From Sumerlaeia bacterium (GTDB lineage Bacteria > Sumerlaeota > Sumerlaeia > SLMS01 > JAHLLQ01): DNA of 64,000 nucleotides. The stretch covers positions 268,582 to 332,581 of the forward strand of contig JAVJSW010000060.1 of NCBI GenBank assembly GCA_040219255.1, written 5' to 3'. The translations under genes and the position numbers were made by a program. Below the pieces are notes generated by a model. That model searched no databases, was not told where the DNA came from, and saw nothing but the letters and a program-made list of their open reading frames with translations. Positions within the stretch are counted from its first letter, which is position 1; each line of letters starts with the position of its first letter. Positions 12,020 through 36,693 of this stretch are shown piece after piece.

Positions 12020-12238
12020 GGGCGGAGGAGACCTCGAGGGATCGGTCGGGGGGGGCGCTCGGGCGCGATGACGGGATGACGGTAGGGGGGAAGGCCGGGG
12101 GATGCAACGGCTACGCCAGTCTGGCGGAAGAGAATGTTGACATCCGCGCCGGTCGAACCCACCGTTGATTCAGGTCGTCCCTCCGCCTGTCCCTCTGGGG
12201 TGCGCGGGTGGCGGGCCGCGATGGAGGGATCGTTGGCA

Positions 12239-12267
12239 TTGACAGCCTGGTCCATCGACCGCAAAAT
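12239..12267 (+). promoter_or_regulatory. Putative sigma70 promoter of the pseudopilin cluster
   Basis: TTGACA-17nt-CAAAAT. Confidence 0.55.
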
Positions 12268-12279
12268 GAAACTTCATCG

Positions 12280-12849
12280 GTGAAGTACCGGCTATTTTCA
12301 GGAAGTGCCCAGCTCTTGCCCAGGTTCTCTCGACTCAACCATCGACGCGTTCGCGCCTTCTCCCTGGCGGAGATCATGGTGGTGGTGGCGATTCTGGCGG
12401 TTGGGTCGACGATCGCGCTTTACAGCTATTCCAGCTATCGGCGCACCCTGTCGGTCAATTCCACCGGGCGCAAGGCGCAGGCGATGATGGTCACGGCGAA
12501 AAACCTGGCGATCAACTCCGGGCGGCCCGTCCAGATGGTGGTCAATCTGGACAAGGAAACCTTCTGGATCGACGGTCTCGACCGGAACGGCAACCTGGAC
12601 AAGCCGAAGATTTATCCGGAAGAGCAGGCCGCGGAGTTCGTTCTGATCGAGCGGCTGAGGGTCGGACCCGACGTTTTCGATTCGGGCATTCACAGCATTC
12701 TGTTCGAGCCCGACGGCCGCAATCGCTTCGTGGTGGTGACGTTCCGCCGCGAATTCGACGATGCGACGGTGGCGGAGAACTACACTTCCATTCGCCTTTT
12801 CCCTTCGTCCCGCGAGCCCCAATTCCTGGAACGCACTCGCCTGGAGTAA
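12280..12849 (+). CDS. GspH/FimT-like minor pseudopilin
   Basis: RA|FSLAEIMVVVAIL prepilin motif; AKNLAINSGRPV and FEPDG resemble GspH/FimT; start codon uncertain. Confidence 0.75.
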   Translation: MKYRLFSGSAQLLPRFSRLNHRRVRAFSLAEIMVVVAILAVGSTIALYSYSSYRRTLSVNSTGRKAQAMMVTAKNLAINSGRPVQMVVNLDKETFWIDGLDRNGNLDKPKIYPEEQAAEFVLIERLRVGPDVFDSGIHSILFEPDGRNRFVVVTFRREFDDATVAENYTSIRLFPSSREPQFLERTRLE

Positions 12850-12856
12850 CCCCGCC

Positions 12857-13312
12857 ATGCGCCAGTCCGCCGTTCGCCGCGGCTTCACCCTTGTCGAGGT
12901 CCTGGTGGCCCTAGCGATCCTGCTGACGGGCATCGTGGCCATCGTTCAGCTCTTTCCCGTCAGCCTGCGAGCCAACACGGACGCGGCGCTGAAGGGCTCG
13001 GCGGTGATTCTCGCCTACCAGAAAGTCGAAGAAATGCGCCGCGACGAGTACCCGCTGCGCAGCGACAGCTTCACCGCCACGGTCCGGAATCTGGAAGGGG
13101 AAACGGACCCGGTGGCCTGGCCGGAAGATCCGCGGCTGACCTATTCCTACTCCGGGTTGAGCGCCGTCCTTGGCGACTTGCCGGAGGACCCCGGCGACCC
13201 GCGCACGGGGCGCGGCGTGGCCCGCGTGATCGTGCGCCTCAGCGAGAGCTTCGACCCGCAAACGCCGGTGATCTACGAACTGCGGTTCTACGGCGATCCG
13301 CTGGCCCCCTAG
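12857..13312 (+). CDS. GspI/PilV-like minor pseudopilin
   Basis: RRG|FTLVEVLVALAIL; AVILAYQKVEEMR. Confidence 0.8.
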   Translation: MRQSAVRRGFTLVEVLVALAILLTGIVAIVQLFPVSLRANTDAALKGSAVILAYQKVEEMRRDEYPLRSDSFTATVRNLEGETDPVAWPEDPRLTYSYSGLSAVLGDLPEDPGDPRTGRGVARVIVRLSESFDPQTPVIYELRFYGDPLAP

Positions 13313-13393
13313 CCGGCTTTGGCCTTCCTCTCTTTCTTTAGGACAAAATCGCAGGTGCCAATTTCTTCCGGTTGCCCCACACTTCCGGCAGTG

Positions 13394-13409
13394 TGGAATG
13401 TCCCTTGCA
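13394..13409 (+). promoter_or_regulatory. Putative sigma54 promoter upstream of the GspJ-like gene
   Basis: TGGAATG-TCCC-TTGCA, GG/GC spacing matches -24/-12. Confidence 0.45.
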
Positions 13410-13455
13410 CATTTCGCCACGGAACCTCGATTTCTCCGGTACGGACCCCGCGCCG

Positions 13456-14547
13456 ATGACGCAACGCTCCCCGAAAATCCGCCCCCGCACGCCGCTCGAG
13501 AGCCGGCGGCGGCGCTCTCGCGCCTTGAGCCTGACGGAGTTGATGGTGGCGATGACGGTGACCCTGGTCTTCACAGGGAGCGTCGTGACCGCTTTCCTGC
13601 AGATTTCCCGCGCCGCCGATGCCTCCGAGGCGCAAATCCGCGCCCATACGCGGGCCCGGGCGGCCCTCGATATCATCGCCCGCGACTTGCAGCGCGTCGC
13701 CTTCGACGTCAACCTCGACAACTCCATGCCCTCTCCCCAGCCCCAGGTCTTCAAAGTTCAGAGTCAAACCCTGGGCCACGGGGATTTGCGCGACAACGAT
13801 GGCGACGGACAGGTGGACGAGGAAGTGGTCAACGGTCTGGACGAAGACTGCGACTGGGTGGATACGCACGCCGAAGCGGATCCGGGAGGCGGATCGCCGC
13901 CCCTGATCGAGCGCGCCGCCTACACCGTCATCCCCGACTTGGGCGACGTCGCAGTGGACGAGGACAATCGTTTCTCGCGCGACATCCTCACGCTTCGCCT
14001 CCCCTCGGTGCGCACCAATGAGTTGGGCGAACCCTTGACGGAGCAAATCACTTACCGCCTCGACGACAGCGCGAGCTTTGGCAGCGAATGGGTGCTGCTC
14101 CGCCAGAACGTCATCATCAACGAAGTGACCATGGAGTCGGAAGTCGAAATCGAACCGGTCGTGTTCGACGTGGTGAGCCTGGACATTCTGCCGTGGAACG
14201 CGAACGACGATGTTACGAGCAACATCCTGACGGCGTGCGCGGCGCCTTCCCAGTACGGACCTTACTACGTGTCCGATTTCGATTCCGGCGATTATTTCAA
14301 CAACCCGGCGCGCCGACCGTTCTATGCGCCGGCCGGCATTCCTCCGTTTCCGTTTCCCGCGGCCGTTTACGTGCGCGTCACGGTGAACGCGGAGCCCATC
14401 CCGCTGGAGGAGTTTTCCGGCTGGCGCCCCGGCGATACCGCTTTGGATCGCACGCCGCTGAAGACGCTGAGCCTGGGGATGGTGGTGACGCTGGACGAGA
14501 CGGTGAGCCAAACGAATTACCGCGATTACGGAATGCCAAGGATGTGA
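13456..14547 (+). CDS. GspJ/PilW-like minor pseudopilin
   Basis: RA|LSLTELMVAM; ARAALDIIARDL; internal DNDGDGQVDEE Ca-binding-like motif. Confidence 0.75.
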   Translation: MTQRSPKIRPRTPLESRRRRSRALSLTELMVAMTVTLVFTGSVVTAFLQISRAADASEAQIRAHTRARAALDIIARDLQRVAFDVNLDNSMPSPQPQVFKVQSQTLGHGDLRDNDGDGQVDEEVVNGLDEDCDWVDTHAEADPGGGSPPLIERAAYTVIPDLGDVAVDEDNRFSRDILTLRLPSVRTNELGEPLTEQITYRLDDSASFGSEWVLLRQNVIINEVTMESEVEIEPVVFDVVSLDILPWNANDDVTSNILTACAAPSQYGPYYVSDFDSGDYFNNPARRPFYAPAGIPPFPFPAAVYVRVTVNAEPIPLEEFSGWRPGDTALDRTPLKTLSLGMVVTLDETVSQTNYRDYGMPRM

Positions 14548-14639: not shown

Positions 14640-17195
14640 ATGGCGAACATGATGCGCCCCACCAGACAAGGCAGGATCGGCGGCCCCGCGAACCGGGGAT
14701 CGGCGATTCTTTTGGTGATCGCCATCCTTTCTATCCTGGTGCTTCTGGCCATCACGCTGTCGTTCACGAGCCGGCTGGAAGTGGCCTCGGCGGAGAACTT
14801 CGCCAATGGCGTCCAGAACCGCGTGGCCACGGAAACCGGCGTGGAGGAAGTGGCCTTCGCCCTGGCGTATCAACTTCCCAGCGGCCCGACGGGAAAGCTC
14901 GATCTGGCTCTGAGTTCCGAGCACCGCGGGCAACGCGAGCGCGCCATCGCGAGCGAATCGCTGGCATGGCGGGGCTTCCGCCTGACGCCCGCCACTCTCT
15001 CGCAACCGGCGGTCACCGCCGCCGCAACGCAGCAGACTTCAAACCGCAGCCTGCGAACCAACGCCTCCGGCGCCCTGATCCCCTATCACGAAACGGAAAA
15101 CTCCGAGGTGGTGGTGCTCGACGCCTCCGCCCGGGTTAACGTCAACGCCGCGCCTTACGAAGTGCTGGCCGGATTTTTCGACGCCCACGGGGCCGAATCG
15201 GGCCACGCGGTGGACGCCGACGCGCTGGCCCGGGCCATCGTGGCGGTGCGCCTGGGGCCCGACGGGGCGCCGGGCAAGAAGGACTTCGACGACGATTACG
15301 ACACGCGCGAGGGCCTGGCCGAATTGCTGCGCGAGGAAAACCCGGAACTGGCCGGCCGCCTGGACCTGCTTCTGCCAGAACTTCTGCAGTCCATCCGCGA
15401 ACCTTACGGGGACCTGCCGGAGGGCGAGGAGGAATGGCGCGCCGCGGCCCGCAAGGCCTTGATGACCAACACGGACGAGAGCGACGAGTACGTGGCGGAC
15501 CTTCGGCTGCCGCCCCTGGGCGACGACATCCGCTTCGGCAAGCTGTCGGACCTGCTGCGCTACGAGCTTATTCGCGACGCCGGCCTGACGCCGGAACTGC
15601 TGGAAAGCGCCCGGCCCTACCTGACGGTCTTCAGCGCGAGCGAGGACGATCTGCTGCGCGCTGACGCCATCGCCCGGGTGGACGCGAATCGCGCCACGGC
15701 GGAGGAAATCCGCGACGGCCTGCGGACGCTCTACGGCGACTCGGGCAAGAACGGCGTCCTCCTGACCCAATTCGCCGCCAATGTGGCCGACGCCCGGGAC
15801 TTCGACAGCGTGCCGACGATCTTCCACGGCTCGACGCGCGAGGACACCGTTCTCGGCTTCGAACGCACGCCCTATATCACGGAAGTTTATCCCGATTCCC
15901 TGACCGACGACGGGGAAGGCGACGACGGCCAGTTCGTGGAACTGTACAATCCCTGGACGGAACCTTTCGACCTGACTGGTTGGTCGCTGCGCGGCGCCGG
16001 GACGGCGTTCGCCATCACCGGTTCGATCGCGCCGAAGGGCTACCTGATCCTGACCGATGACCTGGACAGCACGTCCGACGACTCCGAGGACCTGATCGAG
16101 GGCACCGGCAGCCTGTACCACGTTTTCGGCGTGGTGGCCAACGGCCGCCAGCGGCGCGCTCTGGAAAGCGCCGGTTTCGCCCTGCCGCACACAACCTCCG
16201 GGCCGGTGACGGTGGAGCTGGTGAACGCGGACGGGGACCTGGTGGATCAGTTCACCTACCGCCCCGGCGCGCGTCCGACGGAAGGCATCTACTCGTTCCA
16301 ACGGACAAACCCGCTGGTGCGCTCGGTGGAACGCCTGCGCGCGACGCCTTTCGGTCTGCCGGCGGCGGAATTGCCCGATGATCCGGACACCTTCGACCGG
16401 TTGGCGCTGGCGCCGATGAATGGGCCCTTTGCCGATGTGACGGATGTCCTGATGGTTTTCGCCGGGTTCCACGACGCGGACTCGGGCGAGGAAAACCTGT
16501 GGGGCTATCCGGTGCTGGCCACGCCCAAGAGCCCGCGGCCGGACGACGCGCTGGCGGCGGCGGACCCGCTGGCGATCGATGCCCGCGTGGTGGATCTGCT
16601 GACCGTGGGCACGACCCCGCCGGCGATCAAGGCGAAGCGCACCTCGCGCAACGAGCAGGTGGCGTCGCTCTTCGCGGCGGACACGCGCCAGGACATCGCG
16701 GCGAGTTACAGCCGCGGCGATGTGGACGATCTGGCGGTGCAGCGCCTGACGGGTGTGGCTCTGGGCCGGGCGGTGACGGCAAACGTGCGGCACGGTCTGA
16801 TCAATGTGAACACGGCGCCGGAGACGGTGCTGGCCGCGGTGCCGGGCTTCGGCGCGCGGACGGCGGCGGTTCTGGCGGAGCGGCGCGGCCGCGAGGAATC
16901 GCAGGCCCGGGCCGGCGGCCTGGGCGATGGCCTGCTGTACCATCGGCTGAGCGATCTCCTGGTGGACGACGCGCTCTACGGCGGGGGCCAAGGGGTCTCG
17001 CGCGAGGAGCGGCTGGCCCGCTTCCGGTCGATCGCGCCCTACGTAGCCTTCAATTCGCGATCCTTTGTGCTTGTCGGACAGCCCAAGCTGGCGACAGAGT
17101 CGGGGCAGGACTTGCAGGAAGCTTTGCGGACGGAGTGGCTGGTTGCGACGGACCGGGGAACGCCCGAGACGATCGCCCGCCGGCCGGCCCGCTGA
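14640..17195 (+). CDS. Large GspK-like pseudopilin with lamin-tail-like domain and HhH motif
   Basis: RG|SAILLVIAIL without Glu5 (K-type); DASARVNVNAA, GLINVNTAPETVLAAVPGFG; ITEVYPD...QFVELYNP...DLTGWSL lamin-tail-like segment. Confidence 0.8.
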   Translation: MANMMRPTRQGRIGGPANRGSAILLVIAILSILVLLAITLSFTSRLEVASAENFANGVQNRVATETGVEEVAFALAYQLPSGPTGKLDLALSSEHRGQRERAIASESLAWRGFRLTPATLSQPAVTAAATQQTSNRSLRTNASGALIPYHETENSEVVVLDASARVNVNAAPYEVLAGFFDAHGAESGHAVDADALARAIVAVRLGPDGAPGKKDFDDDYDTREGLAELLREENPELAGRLDLLLPELLQSIREPYGDLPEGEEEWRAAARKALMTNTDESDEYVADLRLPPLGDDIRFGKLSDLLRYELIRDAGLTPELLESARPYLTVFSASEDDLLRADAIARVDANRATAEEIRDGLRTLYGDSGKNGVLLTQFAANVADARDFDSVPTIFHGSTREDTVLGFERTPYITEVYPDSLTDDGEGDDGQFVELYNPWTEPFDLTGWSLRGAGTAFAITGSIAPKGYLILTDDLDSTSDDSEDLIEGTGSLYHVFGVVANGRQRRALESAGFALPHTTSGPVTVELVNADGDLVDQFTYRPGARPTEGIYSFQRTNPLVRSVERLRATPFGLPAAELPDDPDTFDRLALAPMNGPFADVTDVLMVFAGFHDADSGEENLWGYPVLATPKSPRPDDALAAADPLAIDARVVDLLTVGTTPPAIKAKRTSRNEQVASLFAADTRQDIAASYSRGDVDDLAVQRLTGVALGRAVTANVRHGLINVNTAPETVLAAVPGFGARTAAVLAERRGREESQARAGGLGDGLLYHRLSDLLVDDALYGGGQGVSREERLARFRSIAPYVAFNSRSFVLVGQPKLATESGQDLQEALRTEWLVATDRGTPETIARRPAR

Positions 17196-17323: not shown

Positions 17324-18244
17324 ATGGCAATCCCAGGAATGACGAGACGAACACGGCAGCGCGCTTTCACCCTGGTGGAACTCGTGATCGTGGGCGCCCT
17401 CATCGCCCTGTTCTCCGGGCTGGCCATCTTCGGCGTTCAGCAGCAGTTCCGCTCGAACACGCGCAAGGCCATGATCGGCGAAACCCGCCAATTGGCCCAG
17501 GCGCTCGATTTCGCCTTTCAGGATGTGGGCTTCTTTCCAGTACCTTGCTTCCTGGACGACAGCCGGACAACCTTCGAACTCAGCAGCCAGCAGGTCTTCG
17601 CTGGCGATCCCAACCGCCTGTACTTGAACATGGGTGTGTATGACATCCTGCCGCTCAACCAGATCGCCAACGTTCGCGAGAACTGGCGGGGGGCGTATTT
17701 CTCCGCGTCGCAATCCCGCAGCGCGGTGGCTCAGGGCCGGGGCGGTTCGAAGAAGATGGTTCTGCCGCTGGTGTCTCCCGATTTCGCCTTCGATTGGCCG
17801 GCGGACACCTACAACAATCCGTACATGATCTACATGCTGGACATCGATCCGGCGAGTACCGCCACGAACCCGACACTGCGGTTCACGGAGAACAGCACGC
17901 AGAACACGGGCAATTACGTCAATGCCGTCGTGAGCTACGGTCTGAACCAGGTGCCCGGTGGCGGCGATCTGTTCCAGGCGACAGGCAATTTCGACGACAT
18001 CGCCGATGGTGGCCCCTATGGCCTGCGGCTCTACACCGGCAATCCGAACAACACGGAACTGCCGCTGACTTATCTTTCGCCGGCGACGCTGACGCAATCG
18101 GCGGCGGATGCCCGGGCGAACGCCTGGACAACGGAATTCGCCCAGAACGCGGGGATCATCAATCGCCTCGCTCTGAACAACGATCTCAATGACCAAGTCG
18201 CCATCACCGATTCCGGTTCGGACGATGTGGTTTTCAGCTTCTAA
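17324..18244 (+). CDS. Enlarged GspG-type pseudopilin paralog 1
   Basis: RA|FTLVELVIV; WRGAY, ADTYNNPY, SYGLN, SDDVVFSF; GAGGAG RBS. Confidence 0.8.
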   Translation: MAIPGMTRRTRQRAFTLVELVIVGALIALFSGLAIFGVQQQFRSNTRKAMIGETRQLAQALDFAFQDVGFFPVPCFLDDSRTTFELSSQQVFAGDPNRLYLNMGVYDILPLNQIANVRENWRGAYFSASQSRSAVAQGRGGSKKMVLPLVSPDFAFDWPADTYNNPYMIYMLDIDPASTATNPTLRFTENSTQNTGNYVNAVVSYGLNQVPGGGDLFQATGNFDDIADGGPYGLRLYTGNPNNTELPLTYLSPATLTQSAADARANAWTTEFAQNAGIINRLALNNDLNDQVAITDSGSDDVVFSF

Positions 18245-18309
18245 CGTTTTTTCTCCGCTTGATGACGAGTTTTTCGAATAAGGGACCCCGATCCGTGATA
18301 CGCGTACCG

Positions 18310-19044
18310 ATGACAACGACCCGATCCCGCCGCCGCGCGTTCACCGCCGTGGAAATCGCCATGGTGGCGTCCGTGATCGCGATTATCGCGCTCCTCATTC
18401 TGCCGCTTTACCGCTCGCGTACGACGGAAGCGCGCCTTGTGGGGGCGCAGGATGAAATGGCCTCCCTGGCCAAGGCGATGCTGCTGGTGGAGGCGGACAT
18501 CGCCCGCGCGGTGCCGCTGCAGGCGCTCGACAACCGTTCGAGCCAGACGACCGGCGAGCCGCTGGCGGACATCCCCTACAGCGAACGCGCCCCGGAGTAT
18601 ACCTGGAACGGTCTGGAACTCGAAGAGAGCGCCATCGACCGTCAGTGGAAGGGCCCCTACATCTCCTACAACAAGTCCACGACGATGGGGGAAATCCGGT
18701 CGCTCCAGCCCTGGCTGGTCGTGGAAAACGGCGGGCCCCTGTATTACGAGGACCCGATCAGCCCGCCGGCCGGTTCGACCAACAACGCGGCGGACGCGCT
18801 GGCGGACCGCTTCCCGCTCGATCCCTTCGGCAACCCCTACATTTTCTTCAGCACCGGAATCTATCCGCACCCAAGCGCCTTCGCCAGCTCGATCTACAAC
18901 TCGCCGTACAATCAGGTCTGGTCCCTGGGGCCCGATGGCTTGCCGGGCGACGCGCCGACCTTTGGCAGCGCCGGCGACTATTACCCGACGCCGATCGGCC
19001 GCCTGAGCGAGACGGTGGGCGACGACATCCGCTACCGGTTCTAA
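18310..19044 (+). CDS. Enlarged GspG-type pseudopilin paralog 2
   Basis: RA|FTAVEIAMV; WKGPY, DPFGNPY, WSLGPDG, GDDI. Confidence 0.85.
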   Translation: MTTTRSRRRAFTAVEIAMVASVIAIIALLILPLYRSRTTEARLVGAQDEMASLAKAMLLVEADIARAVPLQALDNRSSQTTGEPLADIPYSERAPEYTWNGLELEESAIDRQWKGPYISYNKSTTMGEIRSLQPWLVVENGGPLYYEDPISPPAGSTNNAADALADRFPLDPFGNPYIFFSTGIYPHPSAFASSIYNSPYNQVWSLGPDGLPGDAPTFGSAGDYYPTPIGRLSETVGDDIRYRF

Positions 19045-19140
19045 GGCGGCAACGTTGCGCCCGCACCCGACGGATTCACCCTGAACACGCACGACGCCGA
19101 GGAAAGGCTTCTTCCCCCACTCATTCACGGGACGACCACG

Positions 19141-19923
19141 ATGAAACGAACCGCTTCTCATAAAGGCTTCTCGATCCTCGAGCTGCTGATCGCTCTGATT
19201 ATCATCGGCATCCTGGCCGTGATCCTCATCCCGTTGGTTTCGAACCGGACGGAGGAGGCGCGCCGCACCGCCGCCCTCGCCGATCTGGAACGGCTGGCCA
19301 ACGCGCAGGACCGGCTGGCGGTGGATATCGGGTACTACGGACGCCTGTTTTTTCTCAACGATGTTGGCAACCGCGCGAACGCCCAGCAGTTCCAGCGCGA
19401 TTTCGATCCGGCCGATGGCACGGTGGATAGCATCAGTTCTTACTTCGGTCCGGGGTCGAACTACTTCGGCAACATCAACCAGATCTTCATCGATCCAAAC
19501 ACGGGCAACCTGGTCGCCGCGGTGGTGGGATCGACGCTTCTCGGCAACATCAACGTGAACGAAACGGCGCTCAATTTCTACGGGCCGTACGTGAACTGGA
19601 ACCGGGACGAGAACAGCTACTCGCAGTCTCCGTTCGACGGCGGCGAAGGCACCGCGTACCTGCCGGACGGCATTCCGGACGATCCGTGGGGCAACAACTA
19701 CGTGATCTTCACGCGGGCTGGGATGCTGCTGGAACCGGCGGGCATTTTCACCACCAGCGCCAGTTTCCCGCTCGGCCTGGGCGGCGTGACGGTCAGCAAT
19801 CTGGACGAGGCCTTCGACCGGGCGACGCTGGTGAGCTTCGGCCCCGACGGACTGCCGGGAGACGGAGCGGGGACGCCGATCCCCGGAGAAGGCGACGACA
19901 TTGTCCGGAACTTCGGGCAGTAA
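19141..19923 (+). CDS. Enlarged GspG-type pseudopilin paralog 3
   Basis: KG|FSILELLIA; FYGPY, DPWGNNY, SFGPDG, GDDI. Confidence 0.85.
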   Translation: MKRTASHKGFSILELLIALIIIGILAVILIPLVSNRTEEARRTAALADLERLANAQDRLAVDIGYYGRLFFLNDVGNRANAQQFQRDFDPADGTVDSISSYFGPGSNYFGNINQIFIDPNTGNLVAAVVGSTLLGNINVNETALNFYGPYVNWNRDENSYSQSPFDGGEGTAYLPDGIPDDPWGNNYVIFTRAGMLLEPAGIFTTSASFPLGLGGVTVSNLDEAFDRATLVSFGPDGLPGDGAGTPIPGEGDDIVRNFGQ

Positions 19924-19960
19924 GATTTTCCGCACACTTGAAAAACCCGGTGATGCCATG

Positions 19961-19990
19961 TTGACGCGCCGGGCTTAGGATCACCACACT
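19961..19990 (+). promoter_or_regulatory. Putative sigma70 promoter upstream of GspG paralog 4
   Basis: TTGACG-18nt-CACACT in intergenic DNA. Confidence 0.4.
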
Positions 19991-20050
19991 TCATAGGACA
20001 ACGATCAGTTCCGACGGTTTCCCCAGTTTTTCGGAGGTTGGCACCATACA

Positions 20051-20848
20051 ATGAACCGTTTCTTCAAATCCCAGCGCAAAGGACTTTTCCTGCGCGCCAC
20101 TACCCTAACGGAGCTTTTGGTCGTTTTGGCGATCATTTCGCTCCTGGCGACACTGGCCGTGCCGGTGTACGTACAAAAGAGCGAGCAGGCCCGCCGGGCC
20201 GTCGCCCGCGCCGAAGTGCGCGAAATCGCCAATGCGGAAGAAGCCGTGATCATCACGCACGGTTTCGTGGTTCCGATGCACGTCCTCGACAACGTGCCGA
20301 ACCTTGACAACGGCGGCACAGACGTTCGCGACGATTTCGAGAACGACTCGAACGACGGCACGAAATTCGTCATCGATCCCTTCATCCCGCTCGACGACCA
20401 GTTCGGCAGCCAGCAGACGCTCTCCTCGAGCGACGACAAGGTGGAGCGGATGATCGCTTTCTGGCAGGGTCCGTTCCTGAATCCGGGCCGCGTTTTCCAG
20501 GGCACCAGCGGCGACAACAACACCGTCAACGCGAACCAGGAAGACATCTCGACGGATATCCTGCTGGATCCGTGGGGCCGTCCCTATCGCCTTTACAGCG
20601 ACCTGGGTCTGACCGGCGACGAGCCGGCTCCGTCGGCCATCAGCCAGATCGCGCTGACGACCAACAGCCGCGCCCGCAACTTCGACAATGGCCGTCTGAC
20701 GAACGACGACGACCGTTTCGACCGCTTTGCGGTGCTCTCCTACGGCTCGAATGGCATCGCGGACGATGGCGTGGGCGGCGACCTGGACGACGACATCTTC
20801 TACACCTTTGGCACGGTGGTGAACGAAACGTCGTTCAACCTGTTCTAA
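20051..20848 (+). CDS. Enlarged GspG-type pseudopilin paralog 4
   Basis: RA|TTLTELLVV; WQGPF, DPWGRPY, SYGSNG, DDDI. Confidence 0.85.
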   Translation: MNRFFKSQRKGLFLRATTLTELLVVLAIISLLATLAVPVYVQKSEQARRAVARAEVREIANAEEAVIITHGFVVPMHVLDNVPNLDNGGTDVRDDFENDSNDGTKFVIDPFIPLDDQFGSQQTLSSSDDKVERMIAFWQGPFLNPGRVFQGTSGDNNTVNANQEDISTDILLDPWGRPYRLYSDLGLTGDEPAPSAISQIALTTNSRARNFDNGRLTNDDDRFDRFAVLSYGSNGIADDGVGGDLDDDIFYTFGTVVNETSFNLF

Positions 20849-20899
20849 CCGGTCTCTCCTCGTCACTCTCCGCACCCTCTACCCCTGGACGGTCCTTTC

Positions 20900-21580
20900 A
20901 TGAAGCCCATTTCAGCCAAAGGCGTTTCGCTGCTTGAACTGCTGGTGGTCGTGCTGGTCGTGTCGATCCTGTCGACGATCGCCGTGGGCGTGTACAGCCG
21001 CGAACTGATCAAGAGCAAAGCGGCTCGCGCGCGTGCGGAGATCAGTGCGCTGGAAGTCGCGATCACGCGCTACCAACTCGACACGGGGCAATATCCCCCG
21101 TCGGGAACGAGCGGCGGCACGTTCAATTTCCTGCCGGCGACCGATGTGCCCTATCAGGGTTCGGGGTCTCTGTACGGCGCTCTCATGCGGGGCGTCCTGG
21201 AAAACGCGGTCGATTCGGATGCAGAGGTGACGCCGCTGTGGCAAGGCCCCTACATCGACTTCCGCGATAACACGGGGGTGTACGATTTCCCTTCGAACAC
21301 CGTCATCGATCCTTCCGTGGCGCCGTCCGGCGCGGTCTACCAGACGCAGTTCCTCGATCCCTTCAAGAGACCGTACTACTACATCCGCTCGACCGATTAC
21401 GATACGCTCGGAGGCACGCTGCTTCCCGCCAGCGATCCGCTCTTCACCATCGATCAGTTCTACAACCCGAGCACGTTCCAGCTCGTGTCCTTCGGCCCCG
21501 ACGGCCAGTCGACGGTCAACTCCGGCCTGATCGGGACCGATCCAGACGACTTGTCGAACTGGACCTCCTCTCAATTCTAG
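20900..21580 (+). CDS. Enlarged GspG-type pseudopilin paralog 5
   Basis: KG|VSLLELLVV; YQLDTGQYP, WQGPY, DPFKRPY, SFGPDG, DDLSNW. Confidence 0.88.
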   Translation: MKPISAKGVSLLELLVVVLVVSILSTIAVGVYSRELIKSKAARARAEISALEVAITRYQLDTGQYPPSGTSGGTFNFLPATDVPYQGSGSLYGALMRGVLENAVDSDAEVTPLWQGPYIDFRDNTGVYDFPSNTVIDPSVAPSGAVYQTQFLDPFKRPYYYIRSTDYDTLGGTLLPASDPLFTIDQFYNPSTFQLVSFGPDGQSTVNSGLIGTDPDDLSNWTSSQF

Positions 21581-21623: not shown

Positions 21624-21654
21624 GCCTCCGCCCTCGAAAGGTGGAGGCCTTTTT
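21624..21654 (+). terminator. Rho-independent terminator closing the pseudopilin cluster
   Basis: gcctccgcc-loop-ggtggaggc followed by T-run. Confidence 0.7.
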
Positions 21655-21751
21655 CTTGTTTCGTACTTGCCCGGGGGCCGGAAAAGCGGTGTTAATCGCC
21701 GCGCCTCGCAGAGGCCCCTGCCCCTCCATTTTGCCGCGTTACGAGATTTCC

Positions 21752-22984
21752 ATGTTTGCTTCCTCACTCCGGACCGCCGTTCTGATTGCCGCTCTGCCCG
21801 TGGCGGTGGTGGCGCAAAGCGGCAACCGCGTTTCGAGTTCCGCTTCCACCACCGGCGAGCTGGTACAGACGGCGACTTCGACACCGACGCCGACTCCCAC
21901 GCCAACGGTGACTCCAACGGCGACCGCGGGGCCCACGCCAGCGACCGAGACGCCCGCGCCGACGGCGACGCCGCCGGGCCGGCGGATGCCACTGGAATCG
22001 CCGGTACGGCCCACGCCCGAGGCAACTCCGGAGCCCTCCCGGCCGGCCACCCCGGCGGCCGAGACGCCGGTACCTTCCTTGCCGGAAGGGGCGGAGGAGG
22101 CGCGCTACTACTGGAGCCTGAAGGGTGGCGGCGAAGTAATCGGGCGGCTGATCAAGGACACACCGGAGCAGATCTTCATCGACGTGGGGCCGGATATCCT
22201 GGCGATTCCGCGCGGAGCGGTGGAGCGGCGGCTGACCCTGGCGGATTTGCTGTCGGGCCCGGCGCAGGAGCGTTCGGCGTTGGCGGGGGTCACGGAGGGG
22301 CGCGAGGGGAGCGGTTCGCTCCTGAGCCAGCAGGAAATGGTGGAGGATGTGAAGAAGGGCGTGGTGCTGATCGCGAATCCGCGAGGCCGGGGGTCCGGGT
22401 TCGTGTTGGATGACGAAGGCCGCATCGTGACGAACTATCATGTGGTGCGGGGCGAGAAATACCACACCGTCACGATTTTTCAGTTGCGCAACGGCCAATG
22501 GGAACGCGAGCGATTCGAAAACGTGGAGCTGGAGGCTTACAGCACGCTGTACGACATCGCGCTGCTGCGGCTCGACATGGACGAGGTGGGGGAGCGGGGT
22601 GTGACACTGAACGTGGTTCCCGTGGCGCAACCGGGCGCGCTGCGCGTCGGCGACGCGGTTTACGCCGTGGGCAACCCGGGTATGGGCGCCATGATGCTGG
22701 AGAGCACGGTGACGGAAGGGATCGTCAGCTCGCTCGATCGCAATTTCAACGATGTGATTTACATCCAGACGACGGCGCCGGTGAACCCGGGCAACAGCGG
22801 CGGACCGCTGATCGACAGCGACGGGTCGGTAGTGGGGCTGGTGACTCTGAAGGCCATCTTCCAGGAAGGCATCGCGTTCGCTCTGCCGGTCGAACTGTTG
22901 CGCCATTTCCTGGCGAATTCGAATTCTTACGCGTACAGCCAGCAGGCCCAGAACGACGGATTCCGTTATCACCGGCCGGAATAG
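21752..22984 (+). CDS. Secreted trypsin-like serine protease (S1C, no PDZ) with Pro/Thr-rich N-terminus
   Basis: GSGF, TNYHVV, DIALL, NPGNSGGPL catalytic motifs. Confidence 0.9.
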   Translation: MFASSLRTAVLIAALPVAVVAQSGNRVSSSASTTGELVQTATSTPTPTPTPTVTPTATAGPTPATETPAPTATPPGRRMPLESPVRPTPEATPEPSRPATPAAETPVPSLPEGAEEARYYWSLKGGGEVIGRLIKDTPEQIFIDVGPDILAIPRGAVERRLTLADLLSGPAQERSALAGVTEGREGSGSLLSQQEMVEDVKKGVVLIANPRGRGSGFVLDDEGRIVTNYHVVRGEKYHTVTIFQLRNGQWERERFENVELEAYSTLYDIALLRLDMDEVGERGVTLNVVPVAQPGALRVGDAVYAVGNPGMGAMMLESTVTEGIVSSLDRNFNDVIYIQTTAPVNPGNSGGPLIDSDGSVVGLVTLKAIFQEGIAFALPVELLRHFLANSNSYAYSQQAQNDGFRYHRPE

Positions 22985-23020
22985 GCCGCACCTTCTCCCC
23001 GGACAATTCCCCCATTTAGG

Positions 23021-24868
23021 ATGAGTGCTATGAGTTATCTTCCCCGATTCCTGACGCGCCGGGCTTCGGCCTGGGCGATTTCCGGAGCGCTGTTGACCGC
23101 CCCCGCGGCCCTGACGGCGGACGAGCCGCTGCTGCGGATGCTGCCGGACGAGACCGTGGCGGCGGTGACGATCGCCGATGTGGAAACGTTGCGCGAGGAG
23201 TGGAAGCGCAGCATCTACGCCGAGGCGTGGGCCAGCCCGGAATTCAAGGGCATGCGCGAAGCGATCACGCAGGCGTGGGAGAAAGCGTCGGAGCGGGTCG
23301 AAAAGGACCTGGGGCTTTCGCTGGCGGATCTGTACGCGATGGCCGATGGCTCGGTCGGGATGGCGATTACGGAATTGGATTTCGAGACGGAAACGCCGCA
23401 CGCGGCGATTCTCGTGGGGCTGGACAAGGAGAAGCGCGAAAACGCGGAGCGCGTTGTGGATCGGGCATTGAAGGAATGGATGCCGGACACGGCCAAGAAA
23501 AGCGCCAACGAAGTCGGCGGCGTGCGGGTGTTTTCCTTCGAATTCGCCGATTCGTCCTCGGCCAGGGAAGTGCCCGATGGATTGCGGGGTTTGGAGTTGG
23601 AAACCGAAGCGGGAACTCGCCTGATCCAGTACGCGTTCACCGACAGCCATTTCATCCTGGGCGAGGGCGCCGGCAAACCGGTGGAGAAGGTGCTGCTGAC
23701 GATGTCGGGGCGGGACAAGGAAACGCTCGGGCAATCGAGCAAGTTCCGCCGCGAAGAGCAGCGCGTGAAAGACCTGGGTCTGATCCAGGGCTATATGGAC
23801 GCGGGCAAGTTTTTTGGCGACATGACCCGCATGAGCGAAGCCCCGGAAGAAGGCAAGAAGGCGTTCGAGGCGCTGGGCATTGCGAACCTGGGCGGGATCC
23901 TGATGATGTTCGACTTCGCCCCCAACGGCGCGACAACGCGCACCGGCCTTGGTGTGCCGGCGAACAGCGGGCTTTTGAGCACGATGCTCCGCGCGGGCGA
24001 ACCGAACCGGTTGCAGTTGCTGGAGAAGACGCCATCGAATGCCATCGCTATGGGAAGCTGGACGCTGGACGTGGGGGTGCTGTGGAATTCCATCCGCGAA
24101 TTGGTGAAGCAGACCCAGCCCCAGGCCGACGGGATGCTGAACGCGCAGTTGATGAACCTGCGCAATCAGTTCGGCGTCGATCTCGAGCGCGATATCCTGG
24201 ATCACATCAAGGGCGAGCACGCCTATTATCAGGTGCCTTTGCCTTCGGACCTGGCGCAGCGCCTGACGGAGGAGCAGCAGCAGTTCATGCCCGATTATTC
24301 CCAGGTGGTGATCCTCGGCCTGGAGAACGGTTCGGAAACGGCGAAGAGCATCAACACGCTGATGCAGAAGCTGACCGGCGATCCGTTCCAGTTGCCGCTG
24401 GAAAACCTGGATCAGCAGGGCTTCGCGCTGTGGGCGATGAAGCAGGACCCGGGTCAAGGGATGCCGATTCGGCCATGCCTGGGCGTGACGCCGGGGGGGC
24501 TGGTGTTGTCGTCGACACTGGAGGACGGGCAGGCGGCGATGCGGCGCCTGACGGGCGCGAGCAGCGATTCGCTGGCGAAGGACGAGAAGTTCCGGGCCGT
24601 GCGCGAGGTGCTGGGCACGAGCGACGGCGACCTGCGGGTGTTCAGCTATACGAGCCAGAAGGCCTACGAAGGGGCCTCGGACCAGATGCGCTGGATCGTC
24701 GAGGCGTTCAGCGGCGACCTGATTGCGCAGGGCATTTCGCTCTCGCCGGACGACATCCCACCGGCGTCCTGGTGGCGGCGGTACTTCCTCGGTTCGGGCC
24801 AGACGATCGTGCAGAACGAGAGCGGATTCCTGGCGGAGTACCGGATGCTGGCGCCGGAGGGGCAGTAG
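23021..24868 (+). CDS. Secreted protein, DUF3352-like
   Basis: Signal peptide; LPDET and LEKTPSNA two-lobed duplicated architecture; family assignment from memory. Confidence 0.55.
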   Translation: MSAMSYLPRFLTRRASAWAISGALLTAPAALTADEPLLRMLPDETVAAVTIADVETLREEWKRSIYAEAWASPEFKGMREAITQAWEKASERVEKDLGLSLADLYAMADGSVGMAITELDFETETPHAAILVGLDKEKRENAERVVDRALKEWMPDTAKKSANEVGGVRVFSFEFADSSSAREVPDGLRGLELETEAGTRLIQYAFTDSHFILGEGAGKPVEKVLLTMSGRDKETLGQSSKFRREEQRVKDLGLIQGYMDAGKFFGDMTRMSEAPEEGKKAFEALGIANLGGILMMFDFAPNGATTRTGLGVPANSGLLSTMLRAGEPNRLQLLEKTPSNAIAMGSWTLDVGVLWNSIRELVKQTQPQADGMLNAQLMNLRNQFGVDLERDILDHIKGEHAYYQVPLPSDLAQRLTEEQQQFMPDYSQVVILGLENGSETAKSINTLMQKLTGDPFQLPLENLDQQGFALWAMKQDPGQGMPIRPCLGVTPGGLVLSSTLEDGQAAMRRLTGASSDSLAKDEKFRAVREVLGTSDGDLRVFSYTSQKAYEGASDQMRWIVEAFSGDLIAQGISLSPDDIPPASWWRRYFLGSGQTIVQNESGFLAEYRMLAPEGQ

Positions 24869-32292: not shown

Positions 32293-33318
32293 TTGTCCCG
32301 TTCCTCCGCTCCGCTGCCGTTCTGGCTCTTGATCGCTGTCTTAGGCGCCGTCCTGCTGGGGGCGGTACTATGGGCGCCGACGGTCGGGCCGACGGAGCTG
32401 TCGCTGGCGCGGGCGCTCGATTCCTCGATTCCCGCCGAGACGAACACCGACCGCATCGTGCTGTTTGAGCTGAGGCTGCCCCGGGTCGCGCTCGCGCTGG
32501 CCGTGGGGGTGGCGTTGGCGCTGGCGGGGGCGGCTTTTCAGGCGTTGCTGAGGAACGATTTGGCGACGCCCTACACGCTGGGCGTCAGCGGCGGGGCCAG
32601 CCTCGGCGCCCTTCTGGTGCTCCAAGCCGCCGGAGGCGCCGGAGCGGGCGCGGCGGTGCTCTATGGTCTGGTGCCGCTGGCCGCGTTCGCGGGGGGAGCG
32701 GCGGCCGCCGCGACGGTGCTGGTGCTCGCCGCGCGGAGCCGGGGCCCTGGATCGGAGCGGGGGGCGAGCCTGATTCTGGCTGGCGTGACGCTGAACCTGC
32801 TCTTCGGCGCCGCTGTGATGATCCTGCAATACCGAAGCGATCCCTACGAAGTCGCCGGCATGATCCGCTGGCTGATGGGCAGTCTGGACGCCACGGACTT
32901 CACGGCGGCGGCGGTCGTCGGCGGAGGCGCGGTGCTGGTGGGCGCGATCCTGATGGCGTCGGCGATGGCGCTGAACGTGATGACGCTCGGCGATGCGACG
33001 GCGGCGCACCTGGGGTTTCATCCGGGGCGGGTGCGGGCGTTGTGCCTCATGGCGGGGGCGCTGGGGGCGGCGCTGTGCGTGGCCTACGCCGGGCCGGTGG
33101 GGTTTGTGGGGCTGATTATCCCGCACATGATGCGGCGATTCACGGGGCCGGATCACCGGCGGCTGCTACCCGCCTGCGCGCTGGCGGGAGCGGCGTTCCT
33201 GGTGCTCTGCGACGCCGTGGGCAGGCTCCTCGGCGGCAACACGGAAATCCCGGTGGGCATCGTGACGGCGGTGCTGGGCGGGCCGTTTTTCCTGTGGTTA
33301 TTGTTCCGGCGGGGATGA
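32293..33318 (+). CDS. FecCD/BtuC family ABC transporter permease
   Basis: LRLPRV, QALLRNDLATPYTLGVSGGA, GFVGLIIPH, EIPVGIVT. Confidence 0.93.
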   Translation: MSRSSAPLPFWLLIAVLGAVLLGAVLWAPTVGPTELSLARALDSSIPAETNTDRIVLFELRLPRVALALAVGVALALAGAAFQALLRNDLATPYTLGVSGGASLGALLVLQAAGGAGAGAAVLYGLVPLAAFAGGAAAAATVLVLAARSRGPGSERGASLILAGVTLNLLFGAAVMILQYRSDPYEVAGMIRWLMGSLDATDFTAAAVVGGGAVLVGAILMASAMALNVMTLGDATAAHLGFHPGRVRALCLMAGALGAALCVAYAGPVGFVGLIIPHMMRRFTGPDHRRLLPACALAGAAFLVLCDAVGRLLGGNTEIPVGIVTAVLGGPFFLWLLFRRG

Positions 33319-33852
33319 GGCGGCGGCGAGTTCGCTGCGGAGCAATTGCTCGCGGATGGCGAGTTCGCTCCGCTTGATCCGCCACAGCACAAGCGGCACC
33401 ACGCCCAGCCCCACAGCCATCAGCCCAGCGAACGCCAGCAGTGGGATCATGGCCGCCGGGTCGGGCGCCGCGAGGGCCTTCATCAGCACCAGCCCCGTAA
33501 AAACCCATGCGAAAGCTGTCAGGTGGGCGACCTGCCACAGACCGTAAACCCGGCGGTGGTAGCGGCGGCTCCGGGCCAGCGACAGCATGTAAATTCCCAT
33601 GTTGAGGGGCGCCAGCGTGCACAGCAGCAGCCCCAGCCGCATCCAGATCGGGCCGCTTTCCTGCAGGAATAAAAGTCCCATCGGCAGCGTCAGGATAAGG
33701 GCCACGACCCCGCTGACCTGGGTCAGCCGCTGGCGCAGGGGGCTGAGTTTCGGCGAGAGCAGCTCCTGCATCGCCGCGTCGAAGTGCGCTTTGCGGCGCG
33801 GGTCTGGGGTGGTCTGTTCGATCAATTGGTCGCGAAGGGTGGTGGAAGTCAT
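33298..33852 (-). CDS. Putative membrane anti-sigma factor
   Basis: Four hydrophobic segments; start overlaps the ECF sigma stop codon. Confidence 0.65.
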   Translation of the reverse strand: MTSTTLRDQLIEQTTPDPRRKAHFDAAMQELLSPKLSPLRQRLTQVSGVVALILTLPMGLLFLQESGPIWMRLGLLLCTLAPLNMGIYMLSLARSRRYHRRVYGLWQVAHLTAFAWVFTGLVLMKALAAPDPAAMIPLLAFAGLMAVGLGVVPLVLWRIKRSELAIREQLLRSELAAASSPPEQ

Positions 33853-34403
33853 TTGGCGCGTTCCTCCTGAAGGATGTGGCGAAGTTTGCGTTTGGCGGTG
33901 TGAATGCGGCTCTTGACGGTGCCCTCGGGAATGGCGAGGAGCCCGGCGATGTCCGCGATGGAGAGGTCGTCGAGAAAGTGCAACACGATGGGCTCGCGGT
34001 GGAGCAGGTCCAGCCGGCCGATGGCCCAGTGCAGCTCCTGGGCTTCGGCGGGCGAGAAGTCCGGTTCCTCCGCCGCGGGCCCGGCGCGGTCTGATTCCTC
34101 GGGCAGGGTGTCGTGGATGATCTGGCCGCGTTGCTGGGCAAAGGCGGCGTTGCGGGCAATGCGGTAAATCCAGGCAGGAAAAGCCCCCGGCTGGCGCAAC
34201 TTCGGCAACCCCCGCAACGCCCGCAGCCACGTCTCCTGCAACGCGTCCCAAGCGTCGTCCTCAGTCGGCGCGATGCGGCGCAGATAGTAGAGCAGCGGCC
34301 GCTCCCACTGAGCCACCAGCGGCGCGAATGCGGACTCGTCCCCGCGTTGGAGCCGCACGATCAGGAGTTCGAGCTGTAATCGTTCTGTCTTACTGAGAGC
34401 CAT
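33849..34403 (-). CDS. ECF RNA polymerase sigma factor
   Basis: DALQETWL, FPAWIYRIARN, GTVKSRIH. Confidence 0.93.
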   Translation of the reverse strand: MALSKTERLQLELLIVRLQRGDESAFAPLVAQWERPLLYYLRRIAPTEDDAWDALQETWLRALRGLPKLRQPGAFPAWIYRIARNAAFAQQRGQIIHDTLPEESDRAGPAAEEPDFSPAEAQELHWAIGRLDLLHREPIVLHFLDDLSIADIAGLLAIPEGTVKSRIHTAKRKLRHILQEERAK

Positions 34404-34439
34404 AATGCTGGGCCCTTCCAAAAAGGCGTTCACCCAGAC

Positions 34440-34467
34440 AGATGCGGCAAAGGGGGGTGGCGGTTCA
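34440..34467 (-). promoter_or_regulatory. Putative ECF-type autoregulatory promoter
   Basis: Minus strand TGAACC-16nt-GCATCT upstream of the ECF sigma gene. Confidence 0.55.
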
Positions 34468-34558
34468 GATTGGGGGGGAAGTTTTTCTCGTGTGCCTACG
34501 CTTGCTGGAAACCAGGAAATACAAATCGTTCGGTCGATGACATGCCTGTCTCAACGTT

Positions 34559-35170
34559 TCATCGCATCAGTCCAAACAGGATCAAGACAACAAGACCTAA
34601 AATAAGAAGACATCCGATGAGTCCGGGGATATCCGCGGCGCCAAAATCCGGCGTCAACCCGCGCGACTTTCGATATGCACGGTGGCATGATTTACAGAAC
34701 ACAAATTTCTCTATGCGGCCTCCTGTGCAGGGATACCTCTGCTCGACTACTTCGGTCTTGACCTCGCGGCAGACAATGTGACGATGGCATTTATCGCAAT
34801 TGCCCGAGGCGCACACAAATTTCCTGATTTTGGGATCATAGCAACGAGCGATTCCATGGCACGAATCGCACGATATGGAATTCGGATGACCACAGTTGGG
34901 ACAAGGCCTTCCCGACAGGACATCCCCAATTCTCAACTGCTGATTGCAGGCTTTGCAGGATATCGTTCCAGTCAATACCTCATTCTTCAATTTTTTTTCT
35001 TCGTCATGCTCCTTTTCGAGTCGCTCCTTTTCAGCCAACCTTGCTTGTCTCGCTTCGTGCTCAGCCTGTTTCAGCTTTGCATCCAGAGGGCGAGGATGCT
35101 TGCAGTGCGGGCAAAAGGCCGCTTTCGGGCTGACCAAGCCTTGGCAATAAACACATTCTTTCAGCATCAT
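34559..35170 (-). CDS. Cys-rich multi zinc-ribbon protein with C-terminal TM helix (AT-richer islet)
   Basis: Seven CxxC motifs, charged coiled segment, hydrophobic C-terminus. Confidence 0.65.
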   Translation of the reverse strand: MMLKECVYCQGLVSPKAAFCPHCKHPRPLDAKLKQAEHEARQARLAEKERLEKEHDEEKKLKNEVLTGTISCKACNQQLRIGDVLSGRPCPNCGHPNSISCDSCHGIARCYDPKIRKFVCASGNCDKCHRHIVCREVKTEVVEQRYPCTGGRIEKFVFCKSCHRAYRKSRGLTPDFGAADIPGLIGCLLILGLVVLILFGLMR

Positions 35171-35997
35171 TCACGTACACCCAAAACGAAGAAAAATTCT
35201 CTGTCCAGAGAAGTGTGGCCAAACTCCGGCATCACCGGCAAATTGAAGTTTTTTATCAATCTGGGAACAATCTGAATTATAAGCCAATCGATCATTCCGT
35301 AAAGAGGGGAATAAGATCTTTCCGGCCAGCAGTAGTGACGAAGAATGACACTCACATACTTCCTGGAAAGAAGATCGTTGACATGCGCGAAGAAATCGAG
35401 GAGAAAATTATATAGGAGAGGGTCATGAAAATTCGCTGATTCGCGGGAAAGCTTTTCTATCCAGTCCATTGATGGCAATTCATCCACGTTAAGCGCCTTG
35501 CGAACATAATGAAAGTAGAGATCCTCGAGGGAGTGCTCAAAGCAAAGAATCGAGCCATCCCTGATATATACGAGCTGGTCGAAGAAGTCTCCTGTGATTA
35601 CAGAGCCTTTGACCTGAAAGAGATCGAGGTATTGTTTCAGCGGAGACGCCATTTGCGCCGATGCCTCGATACCATTGTAGTGATAGGCGTTTGCTGGCCT
35701 AACCGCTTTGAGGGCGATAATGATTGCGCTCGAGCTTCCTGGGCCAATCTCAACAACCCGCCTATAATGGCCAGTCTGTGCCAGCCTCTCAAAGCACCGT
35801 GCGTACCTGAGAATAAGCTGCAAATTCCAATGAGCAGACTCTGGGATGTCTCTTGACCGCTCCAAGAGCCTGCGGGCCCGCCACTCGGTACACAGTCTTT
35901 CAGGCCAGGAATCCCAACGCCTCGTCTGATGCATGATCAACAGTGGCCATTTCCCACAAAAACTGAGTGCTTCCTGGGTGTCCCAATGCTGGAGCAA
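35167..35997 (-). CDS. Putative class I SAM-dependent methyltransferase-fold protein (AT-richer islet)
   Basis: VVEIGPGSS, YNGIE, ITGDFFD; start uncertain. Confidence 0.55.
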   Translation of the reverse strand: MLQHWDTQEALSFCGKWPLLIMHQTRRWDSWPERLCTEWRARRLLERSRDIPESAHWNLQLILRYARCFERLAQTGHYRRVVEIGPGSSSAIIIALKAVRPANAYHYNGIEASAQMASPLKQYLDLFQVKGSVITGDFFDQLVYIRDGSILCFEHSLEDLYFHYVRKALNVDELPSMDWIEKLSRESANFHDPLLYNFLLDFFAHVNDLLSRKYVSVILRHYCWPERSYSPLYGMIDWLIIQIVPRLIKNFNLPVMPEFGHTSLDREFFFVLGVRE

Positions 35998-36140
35998 TAC
36001 AAGAACAGTGTGATGTGGCGCGTCTTAATCGTGTATGAGGAAAGTTCATCCCCACCCACCCATCCGATGCAATCGGAACTTAAAAACTCGCTTGGACGGA
36101 GAGCAGCGGTCCCAAAAACCTGATTCTCTTCGCAGTCACC

Positions 36141-36620: not shown

Positions 36621-36693
36621 GGCTTGCTCTTGCGCCCAAGGGGCCCGGGGCGGCAATGGCGGAGTGACTTTTCCCGGCGGGCGGCGCGAAACC

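Follow-up and report, generated by a model that had tools for sequence, protein, structure and literature searches.

What do five enlarged relatives of the pseudopilin GspG do side by side in one bacterial gene block? The question is raised by a stretch of 64,000 nucleotides (hereafter the window) from a Sumerlaeia bacterium of the phylum Sumerlaeota (GenBank assembly GCA_040219255.1, contig JAVJSW010000060.1, positions 268,582 to 332,581 of the forward strand), in which a sequence-only reading had noticed five tandem, intact GspG paralogues of 226-306 aa that keep the same ordered motifs. Open reading frames (ORFs) and alignment bear this out. The genes, here called P1 to P5, are same-strand ORFs, each coding for an enlarged GspG-type pseudopilin: P1 at 17324-18244 (+ strand, as are the others; 306 aa, 292 aa mature), P2 at 18259-19044 (261 aa, about 234 aa mature, with the later starts 18262 or 18310 equally possible), P3 at 19141-19923 (260 aa), P4 at 20051-20848 (265 aa) and P5 at 20900-21580 (226 aa). 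Intergenic gaps are 14-128 nt and the GC content at third codon positions is of the coding type (0.79-0.87). We found that P1-P5 are five ancient, intact prepilins, orthologous by position, which stand in a fixed order in essentially every Sumerlaeota genome, and we infer that within one filament each occupies a fixed place and cannot be exchanged for another.

Loci were collected around a GspK-like protein (K) encoded next to P1, which was found in 41 of 41 relatives and gave 17 loci. With the window counted, five genes lie directly 3' of K in the same order in 16 of 18 loci, and one of these, that of G030, has a sixth. The 81 mature pilins of these 16 loci, which belong to 10 families, were placed in a maximum-likelihood tree (IQ-TREE quick search, LG+G4), from which the G033 and G031 loci were left out since no P1-P5 stand beside K there; the outgroup was a single sequence, the short canonical GspG of the window (39339-39782, - strand, 147 aa, 103.5 bits with PF08334). 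The sequence-only reading had left it to such a phylogeny whether each position forms an orthologous clade across genomes, and each does: positions 1 to 4 are one clade each (SH-aLRT 100, 99, 97 and 99), position 5 forms another with the additional copy of G030 (99), and a clustering by position as strong as this was obtained in 0 of 500 label shuffles. The branching order is P5, then P4, then P1-P3, with the root of the tree uncertain because the single outgroup is long. Stem branches are 0.44-1.45 long, which indicates that the duplications are older than the divergence of the sampled families, and a recent tandem duplication was dropped on this account. That the duplication is old had also been proposed from the lack of obvious DNA repeats, and this stands: direct repeats among P1-P5 are 15-31 nt long and form 18 families on shared motif codons, and neither a recent duplication nor a cassette structure is present.

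The spread of the genes was followed with five orthologue profiles in 75 Sumerlaeota species genomes, 43 of them of high quality. P1 was found in 74 (E<=1e-10), P2 in 73 with one match each (1e-30), P3 in 69 (1e-35), P4 in 68 (1e-35) and P5 in 73 (1e-15); among the high-quality genomes the count is 39/43 for P4 and 43/43 for each of the others. In 62 of the 75 genomes P1 and P5 share a contig and a strand, with P5 on the 3' side, at a span of 3.35-4.96 kb (median 4.1 kb). In nine genomes, whose assemblies are fragmented, they fall on separate contigs; P1 is alone in three, P5 is alone in one, and in none are both missing. A few groups show local changes: genus g38 (G046-G048) carries a second P3-like gene at the place of P4 and gave no P4 match, family f11 (G031, G037) has a tandem P4 duplicate, and P5 is duplicated in tandem in G030 and G062. 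Frames are open, without stops within the best matches, in most genomes, and the idea that these are pseudogenes was dropped for this reason. The P1-P5 block is a sharp genomic marker for Sumerlaeota. When 1.84 billion cluster representatives were searched with the P4 profile, only 97 proteins passed E<=1e-30 and 240 passed 1e-10; proteins that had come up before as P3 homologues are among the weaker full-length matches. The pattern picked up by a genome-contig scan with the P1 alignment was the generic N-terminal helix, in four unrelated pilin loci of other phyla. A protein atlas also holds enlarged GspG-like clusters of 222-266 aa, partly with PF08334, from Acidobacteriota and Planctomycetota, with feature scores of 0.95-0.97 against P1 and P4. 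In the literature as far as its text was available, supplements of Sumerlaeota genome papers (including PMC10866078) aside, no description of the P1-P5 array was found.

P1-P5 are under purifying selection. In G002/G007, the closest pair with unsaturated synonymous sites (synonymous divergence, dS, of 0.8-1.7; other pairs are saturated), the ratio of nonsynonymous to synonymous divergence (dN/dS) is 0.20, 0.11, 0.17, 0.23 and 0.15 for P1 to P5, respectively, and against the nearest relative of the window it is 0.22-0.43. Leaders are present in all five, and together with the dN/dS of 0.11-0.23 this is in accordance with the earlier view of intact genes rather than silent cassettes; silent cassettes and antigenic variation were dropped because recombination repeats are lacking. 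Mean pairwise identity within the orthologue groups is 0.45-0.86 for the helix and core motifs versus 0.13-0.46 for the inserts between them, so the inserts evolve faster, as exposed loops might be expected to. They nonetheless hold group-specific conserved motifs. The N-terminal helix, too, is particular to each of P1-P5 and is kept throughout the phylum, with a mean pairwise identity of 0.57-0.65 across the sampled loci.

All five proteins begin with a basic leader of 8-16 residues (10-27 in P2), with Gly or Ala in position -1; a hydrophobic helix follows, and position +5 is Glu. This is the class III signal peptide of type IV pilin-like proteins (PF07963 / TIGR02532). Glu5 is invariant in every orthologue alignment. 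P3 (24.4 bits) is over the cut-off of Pfam N_methyl, P1 (19.3) and P5 (19.1) are just under it and P2 reaches 12.9; P4 is absent from the N_methyl matches and has no Pfam family at E<=0.1. In all five the motifs W/F-x-G-P/A-Y/F, D-P/T-W/F/Y-x-x-P/N-Y, S-x-G-x-D/N and, at the end, D-D-I/V/L follow one another. When 19 canonical GspGs of relatives were aligned, they had these motifs too, which indicates that they are the GspG core and nothing new. With GspG (PulG, EpsG, XcpT; PF08334, TIGR01710) the five thus have in common the prepilin leader, Glu5, the long N-terminal helix, the ordered core motifs, a C-terminal DD loop and the absence of a disulphide: each protein has 0-1 Cys, there are no Cys pairs, and the net charge is acidic. 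In GspG a C-terminal calcium-binding loop replaces the disulphide, as is known from EpsG and PulG. DD is invariant in all five orthologue families, and in P5 and P2 the segment S-x-G-x-D/N-G ... D-D-I aligns with its canonical GspG equivalent, which makes it a candidate calcium loop.

Whether the whole proteins descend from GspG was approached by profiles and by models. By hhalign, the canonical GspG family is matched by P5 over its full length (99.7%, 133 columns) and by P2 over 124 columns (99.5%), whereas P1, P3 and P4 match it over the helix only, along 58-60 columns that end at the first insert; the P4 profile in turn recovers P3 orthologues full length (E 1e-19 to 1e-25). Profile searches of PDB sequences likewise matched the N-terminal helix only for P1 and P3, and about 100 residues for P5. 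PF08334 (cut-off 21 bits) is passed by P5 (28.7) and P3 (21.3) and failed by P2 (19.6), with no match for P1 and P4, and the TIGR01710 scores of P1-P5 (16.2, 34.6, 56.8, 33.8 and 43.9 bits) are all under the cut-off of 88.85. As the curated GspG cut-offs are mostly missed, we call the proteins GspG-derived and not GspG equivalogs. AlphaFold2 models of P3 and P1, made from alignments of 84 and 83 homologues, are confident, with a predicted local distance difference test score (pLDDT) of 89.6 and 91.7 and a predicted template modelling score (pTM) of 0.85 and 0.86, respectively. In an exhaustive structural comparison with 48,161 PDB representatives, Vibrio EpsG came first and Klebsiella PulG second for both models. 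Against EpsG (4lw9_A), P3 gave Z 6.4 with a root-mean-square deviation of 2.9 A over 100/119 residues at 30% identity, and P1 gave Z 5.7 with 2.7 A over 99/119 residues; against PulG (5wda_A) the values were Z 5.3 over 122/130 residues for P3 and Z 5.0 over 120/130 for P1. Foldseek searches of the PDB with the same two models gave no match at E<=0.001. The Z-scores are modest, and the fold assignment combines them with coverage, motifs and profiles: the EpsG and PulG matches cover nearly the whole target and agree with the motifs. The GspG fold (long helix, alpha-beta loop, three-stranded sheet), which the earlier reading had made a point to be checked, is supported for P1 and P3 by these models and the profile comparisons. 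From the P1 and P3 models, the P2 and P5 profiles and the full-length paralogy of P4 to P3 we conclude that P1-P5 all descend from GspG.

Unlike GspG, which is one gene, these are five distinct orthologous lineages, and mature proteins are 219-293 aa long versus about 135 aa, with four loops expanded. The distance from helix end to the W motif is 47-78 residues (about 20 in GspG), from GPY to DPW 30-53 (about 9), from the first strand to S-x-G 27-50 (about 10) and from S-x-G to DD 14-92 (about 6). The value of 92 belongs to the insert ahead of the DD motif in P1, the most divergent of the five, to which P2-P5 are 21-27% identical; P5 is the nearest to canonical GspG. Pro22 is kept in P2-P4 only, and Gly14 additionally in P3 only, so that P1 and P5 are without Pro22. 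The sequence-only reading had described the segments between the motifs as unrelated inserts rich in Asn, Asp and Gly. This holds in part: the inserts are far longer than those of GspG, but, as the full-length match between the P4 profile and P3 orthologues indicates, not all are unrelated, and the three residues are enriched but not extreme, making up 17-29% of the mature proteins. P4 is the only one with a conserved tail, of 17-19 residues beyond the DD motif, which, speculatively, might contact a neighbouring subunit. P3 and P4 also contain a 20-nt repeat, 90% identical, at 19555-19574 and 20819-20838 (+ strand), which encodes V-N-E-T, just ahead of W-x-G-P-Y in P3 and within the C-terminal tail in P4; the motif includes an N-x-T sequon.

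P1-P5 do not stand alone, as they are the last of nine consecutive + strand genes with prepilin-type N-termini, the first four being H-, I-, J- and K-like. The GspH-like minor pilin (12208-12849, + strand; probable start 12280 or 12316, mature from about 12358) has 26 bits with N_methyl, over the cut-off, 18.8 bits with GspH PF12019 (cut-off 21) and weak GspH/XpsH matches. The GspI/PilV-like minor pilin (12761-13312, +; probable start 12857) has 28.5 bits with N_methyl and two matches under cut-off, 38 bits with TIGR02523 PilV and 24.8 with TIGR01707 GspI (cut-off 44.35). The gene in the GspJ position (13372-14547, +; about 340 aa mature) is taken as a minor pilin from its position and size; N_methyl gives 19.2 bits, under the cut-off, there are weak matches to Verru_Chthon cassette protein C and HpsC, and GspJ TIGR01711 gave no match. 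The fourth is a GspK-like large minor pilin of 851 aa (14640-17195, +) with 24.1 bits for T2SSK PF03934 (cut-off 24.2) and 38.8 for NF037980 GspK (cut-off 130). Between its pilin N-terminus and its GspK/HhH-like C-terminal part, at residues 412-540, sits a lamin-tail domain (LTD; 44.5 bits, cut-off 34.3), which may be an adhesive or ligand-binding tip module. Since the curated cut-offs of the GspH/I/J/K families are not reached, the names come from order, size and weak similarity. Residue 5 past the putative cleavage site of K is not Glu. A lack of Glu5 is expected of the top subunit of a filament, as known from GspK.

The stretch from the H-like gene through P5 is apparently one transcription unit, a putative nine-pilin operon. 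A promoter-like site (TTGACA, 17 nt, CAAAAT; 10/12 consensus positions) lies at 12239-12267 (+) before the first pilin gene, and the strongest terminator-like hairpin of the region lies at 21624-21648 (+; 21624-21658 with its T-rich tail), 44 nt past the P5 stop, with 9 pairs, 7 of them G-C. Two promoter-like sites were found in the region versus 1.7 expected from shuffles, and nine terminator-like sites versus 11.1; as these counts are not above the shuffles, the two signals are consistent with a single unit without proving it. K adjoins P1 in 35/41 genomes, which, with the missing Glu5 of K, speaks for a link to the tip genes.

This context bears on the idea that P1-P5 are not filament subunits at all but binding proteins of the cell surface or periplasm, for which the prepilin leader would serve in membrane anchoring or export only. 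The genome has dozens of pilin-like genes outside any pilus locus, and no machinery gene adjoins the block in any locus examined, both of which would suit such proteins. On the other hand, the block follows H-I-J-K-like genes in the same 35 of 41 genomes, conservation extends to Glu5 and the whole GspG assembly core, and the helices are conserved to the degree given above, and we consider the idea very improbable.

Within a filament, we favour the reading that P1-P5 are low-copy, ordered connector layers beneath a K-I-J-H tip complex, a proposition that we hold to be about evenly balanced. After cleavage by prepilin peptidase, all nine proteins would be joined through the helices at their N-termini in a single type IV filament or pseudopilus, assembled by a machine encoded elsewhere in the genome. 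Each paralogue would occupy a fixed place in this filament, with P1-P5 stacked in order under the tip as connectors, a role likened to that of GspH in type II secretion and of PilE in type IVa pili. The outcome would be a wide, acidic head, probably stabilised by calcium, carried by a shaft whose subunit is short and highly expressed, for instance canonical GspG. The short GspG of the window, with relatives in 29/31 genomes at E<=1e-20, is a candidate for this shaft subunit. Secretion of the many hydrolases of the phylum, adhesion or uptake are candidate roles for such a filament. The connector reading fits the fact that P5 is both the last gene and the most GspG-like.

It also parallels, by analogy, the gene order of Pseudomonas. 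In P. aeruginosa the type IVa minor-pilin operon is fimU-pilV-pilW-pilX-pilY1-pilE, in which PilE, major-pilin-like and encoded after the H-, I-, J- and K-like genes, connects the tip complex to the shaft. Here, too, H-, I-, J- and K-like genes appear to be followed by major-pilin-shaped genes, and neither the machinery nor the major pilin gene is part of the operon. The differences are that five genes occupy the connector position instead of one, that P1-P5 are of the GspG (calcium-loop) type and not of the disulphide type, and that there is no PilY1, while K carries the LTD domain. The PilE structure 4noa was matched by the P3 model with Z 3.6 over 74/108 residues. The layout differs from that of GspG as well, since P1-P5 are encoded after H-I-J-K and not before, and never with gspC-F or gspD.

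Codon usage was examined as a possible guide to copy number. The reference for the codon adaptation index (CAI) was a set of 25 ORFs of the own genome, EF-Tu and the ribosomal protein block, identified from translations (median 0.71). P1-P5 have 0.58, 0.68, 0.60, 0.67 and 0.63, that is, the 48th-81st percentile of 3600 ORFs, and H-K have 0.58-0.66, whereas the short GspG of the window reaches 0.740 (95th percentile) and a second short GspG 0.79. Being like H-K and below the genome's own short GspGs, P1-P5 are placed with the minor pilins.

The same values weigh on the main rival, a heteropolymeric shaft, in which P1-P5 would all be major subunits of a thick filament, in repeating order or mixed. 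Much in the proteins suits it. All of them retain the GspG core in full, along with Glu5 and the DD loop; Pro22 and Gly14 are typical of shaft-forming pilins, and the former is found in P2-P4 and the latter in P3; universal retention and fixed gene order fit an obligate co-assembly; and the faster evolution of the inserts is expected of exposed shaft surfaces. The type IVa pilus of Myxococcus xanthus reportedly has a shaft of a single large major pilin of 208 aa (PDB 8tj2), which indicates that a much-enlarged pilin can form one, although that pilin is single, of the type IVa kind, and gave only Z 3.1 with the P3 model. Against a shaft of this kind speak the codon adaptation at minor-pilin level, below both short GspGs, and the lack of Pro22 in P1 and P5. 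Heteropolymeric type IV filaments of two components do exist (PMC10628169), but no precedent is known beyond two major subunits. PilE1 and PilE2 of Streptococcus sanguinis (PDB 8pfb) are highly similar, have the N-terminal portion in common and are placed stochastically, and in the archaellum of Methanocaldococcus villosus ArlB1 and ArlB2 alternate (PMC10628169). As in these, the paralogues are encoded side by side here and more than one pilin would go into one filament; what the genomes show for P1-P5 is co-inheritance. Unlike in these, there are five subunits, 21-27% identical, and their five helices differ, whereas the N-terminal portion of the S. sanguinis pair is identical, which also counts against the shaft. 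All told, a shaft of P1-P5 is possible but unlikely. In a more specific form, the filament body would be an ordered heteropolymer of P1-P5 in gene order, each subunit recognising the previous one via helix and inserts. This is doubtful, and if true it would be the first filament of the superfamily with more than two shaft subunits and a programmed subunit sequence.

Several points weigh against the connector reading itself. Classical gsp operons co-transcribe the major with the minor pseudopilins, so that operon membership is no sign of low copy, and CAI is a weak proxy of copy number in a GC-rich, probably slow-growing organism and was taken from one genome. We know of no connector layer with five members. 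The H, I and J names come from sub-threshold matches and gene order, and Z-scores of 5-6.4 are under the level at which the aligner would be safe for a fold match alone. In G031, G033, G037 and G039, which belong to two families, an intact P1-P5 block lies elsewhere, among unrelated genes, so the link to the tip genes is frequent but not obligatory. In the flanks of 10 loci and around the four blocks that lie elsewhere, Pfam showed no neighbour conserved beyond the own family of the window. Finally, the assembly machinery is distant: the genome has about seven platform genes (16 domain matches), eight secretin matches, one prepilin peptidase match and 20 ATPase matches (17 at E below 1e-30), all of them away from the operon, and no T2SSE, T2SSF or secretin gene stands beside the block in the window or the other loci examined. 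The proposal of the earlier reading that these are fixed subunits of a heteropolymer agrees with the data as far as non-interchangeable parts of one assembly are concerned, be it as a repeating shaft or as a low-copy ordered layer; CAI groups them with H-K, below the short GspGs.

The own genome also contains at least 24 dispersed pilin-like genes (e.g. C4:183909, C27:67761, C1:75065 and C42:190451) with one nearly identical N-terminal helix, which differ in the rest of the protein (173-251 mature residues) and have a CAI of 0.50-0.81. They resemble an extensive set of pilin-anchored proteins or interchangeable pilins of the kind known from Planctomycetes.

The other proposal of the sequence-only reading was that P1-P5 are alternative major pilins, of which one would be used at a time or per condition, giving filaments with different surfaces. 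Many bacteria carry spare pilin genes, and the inserts do differ between the paralogues and are put on the outside of the subunit by the GspG fold. However, the genes form one apparent transcription unit with gaps of at most 128 nt and its sole strong terminator-like hairpin after P5, there are no recombination repeats, and each single-copy orthologue is kept across the phylum, near-universally, although redundancy would permit losses. Their helices are moreover paralogue-specific, while the interchangeable-looking pilins of the genome have one common helix. We therefore disfavour alternative major pilins and judge them very unlikely indeed.

Cassettes of several prepilin-type proteins in bacteria of the PVC group, Verru_Chthon cassette proteins A-D (TIGR02596-TIGR02600), resemble the block in general make-up. 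H, I, J and P1 gave weak matches to them, far below cut-off (e.g. 19.6 bits vs 256.5), and they are the best match for none of P2-P5; membership of these families was rejected on these grounds.

The usual picture of a type IV filament, be it a pilus, pseudopilus or archaellum, is that of a single major subunit with a small complex at the tip. The retention of P1-P5 throughout Sumerlaeota means that here either tip and connector are far more elaborate, with nine pilins, or the shaft has several components, and either outcome bears on how the order of subunits is specified during assembly. It also gives a concrete surface structure to seek in a phylum that has been seen almost exclusively through metagenomes and whose polymer-degrading way of life probably relies on machinery for secretion or adhesion.

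Elsewhere in the window, at 21641-24868 (+), the pilin block is followed by a trypsin-like serine protease gene, as it is in four other scanned loci of the own family; in the window and one of these four, a DUF3352 protein comes next. As the ORF of the protease runs over the terminator-like hairpin, its real start probably lies further downstream. A lone T2SSE-family ATPase is encoded at 59740-61224 (-), with no pilus genes around it. The stretch 34001-36000 has a low GC content (0.53 vs about 0.65) and may be foreign DNA; it holds two - strand ORFs, 34559-35170 with a weak double-zinc-ribbon match below cut-off and 35167-35997 with no family, and Rfam gave no match in 33300-38400. At 46172-49490 (+) a PSCyt2/PSD1 protein is encoded beside a DUF1501 protein, a pair typical of Planctomycetes-like genomes.

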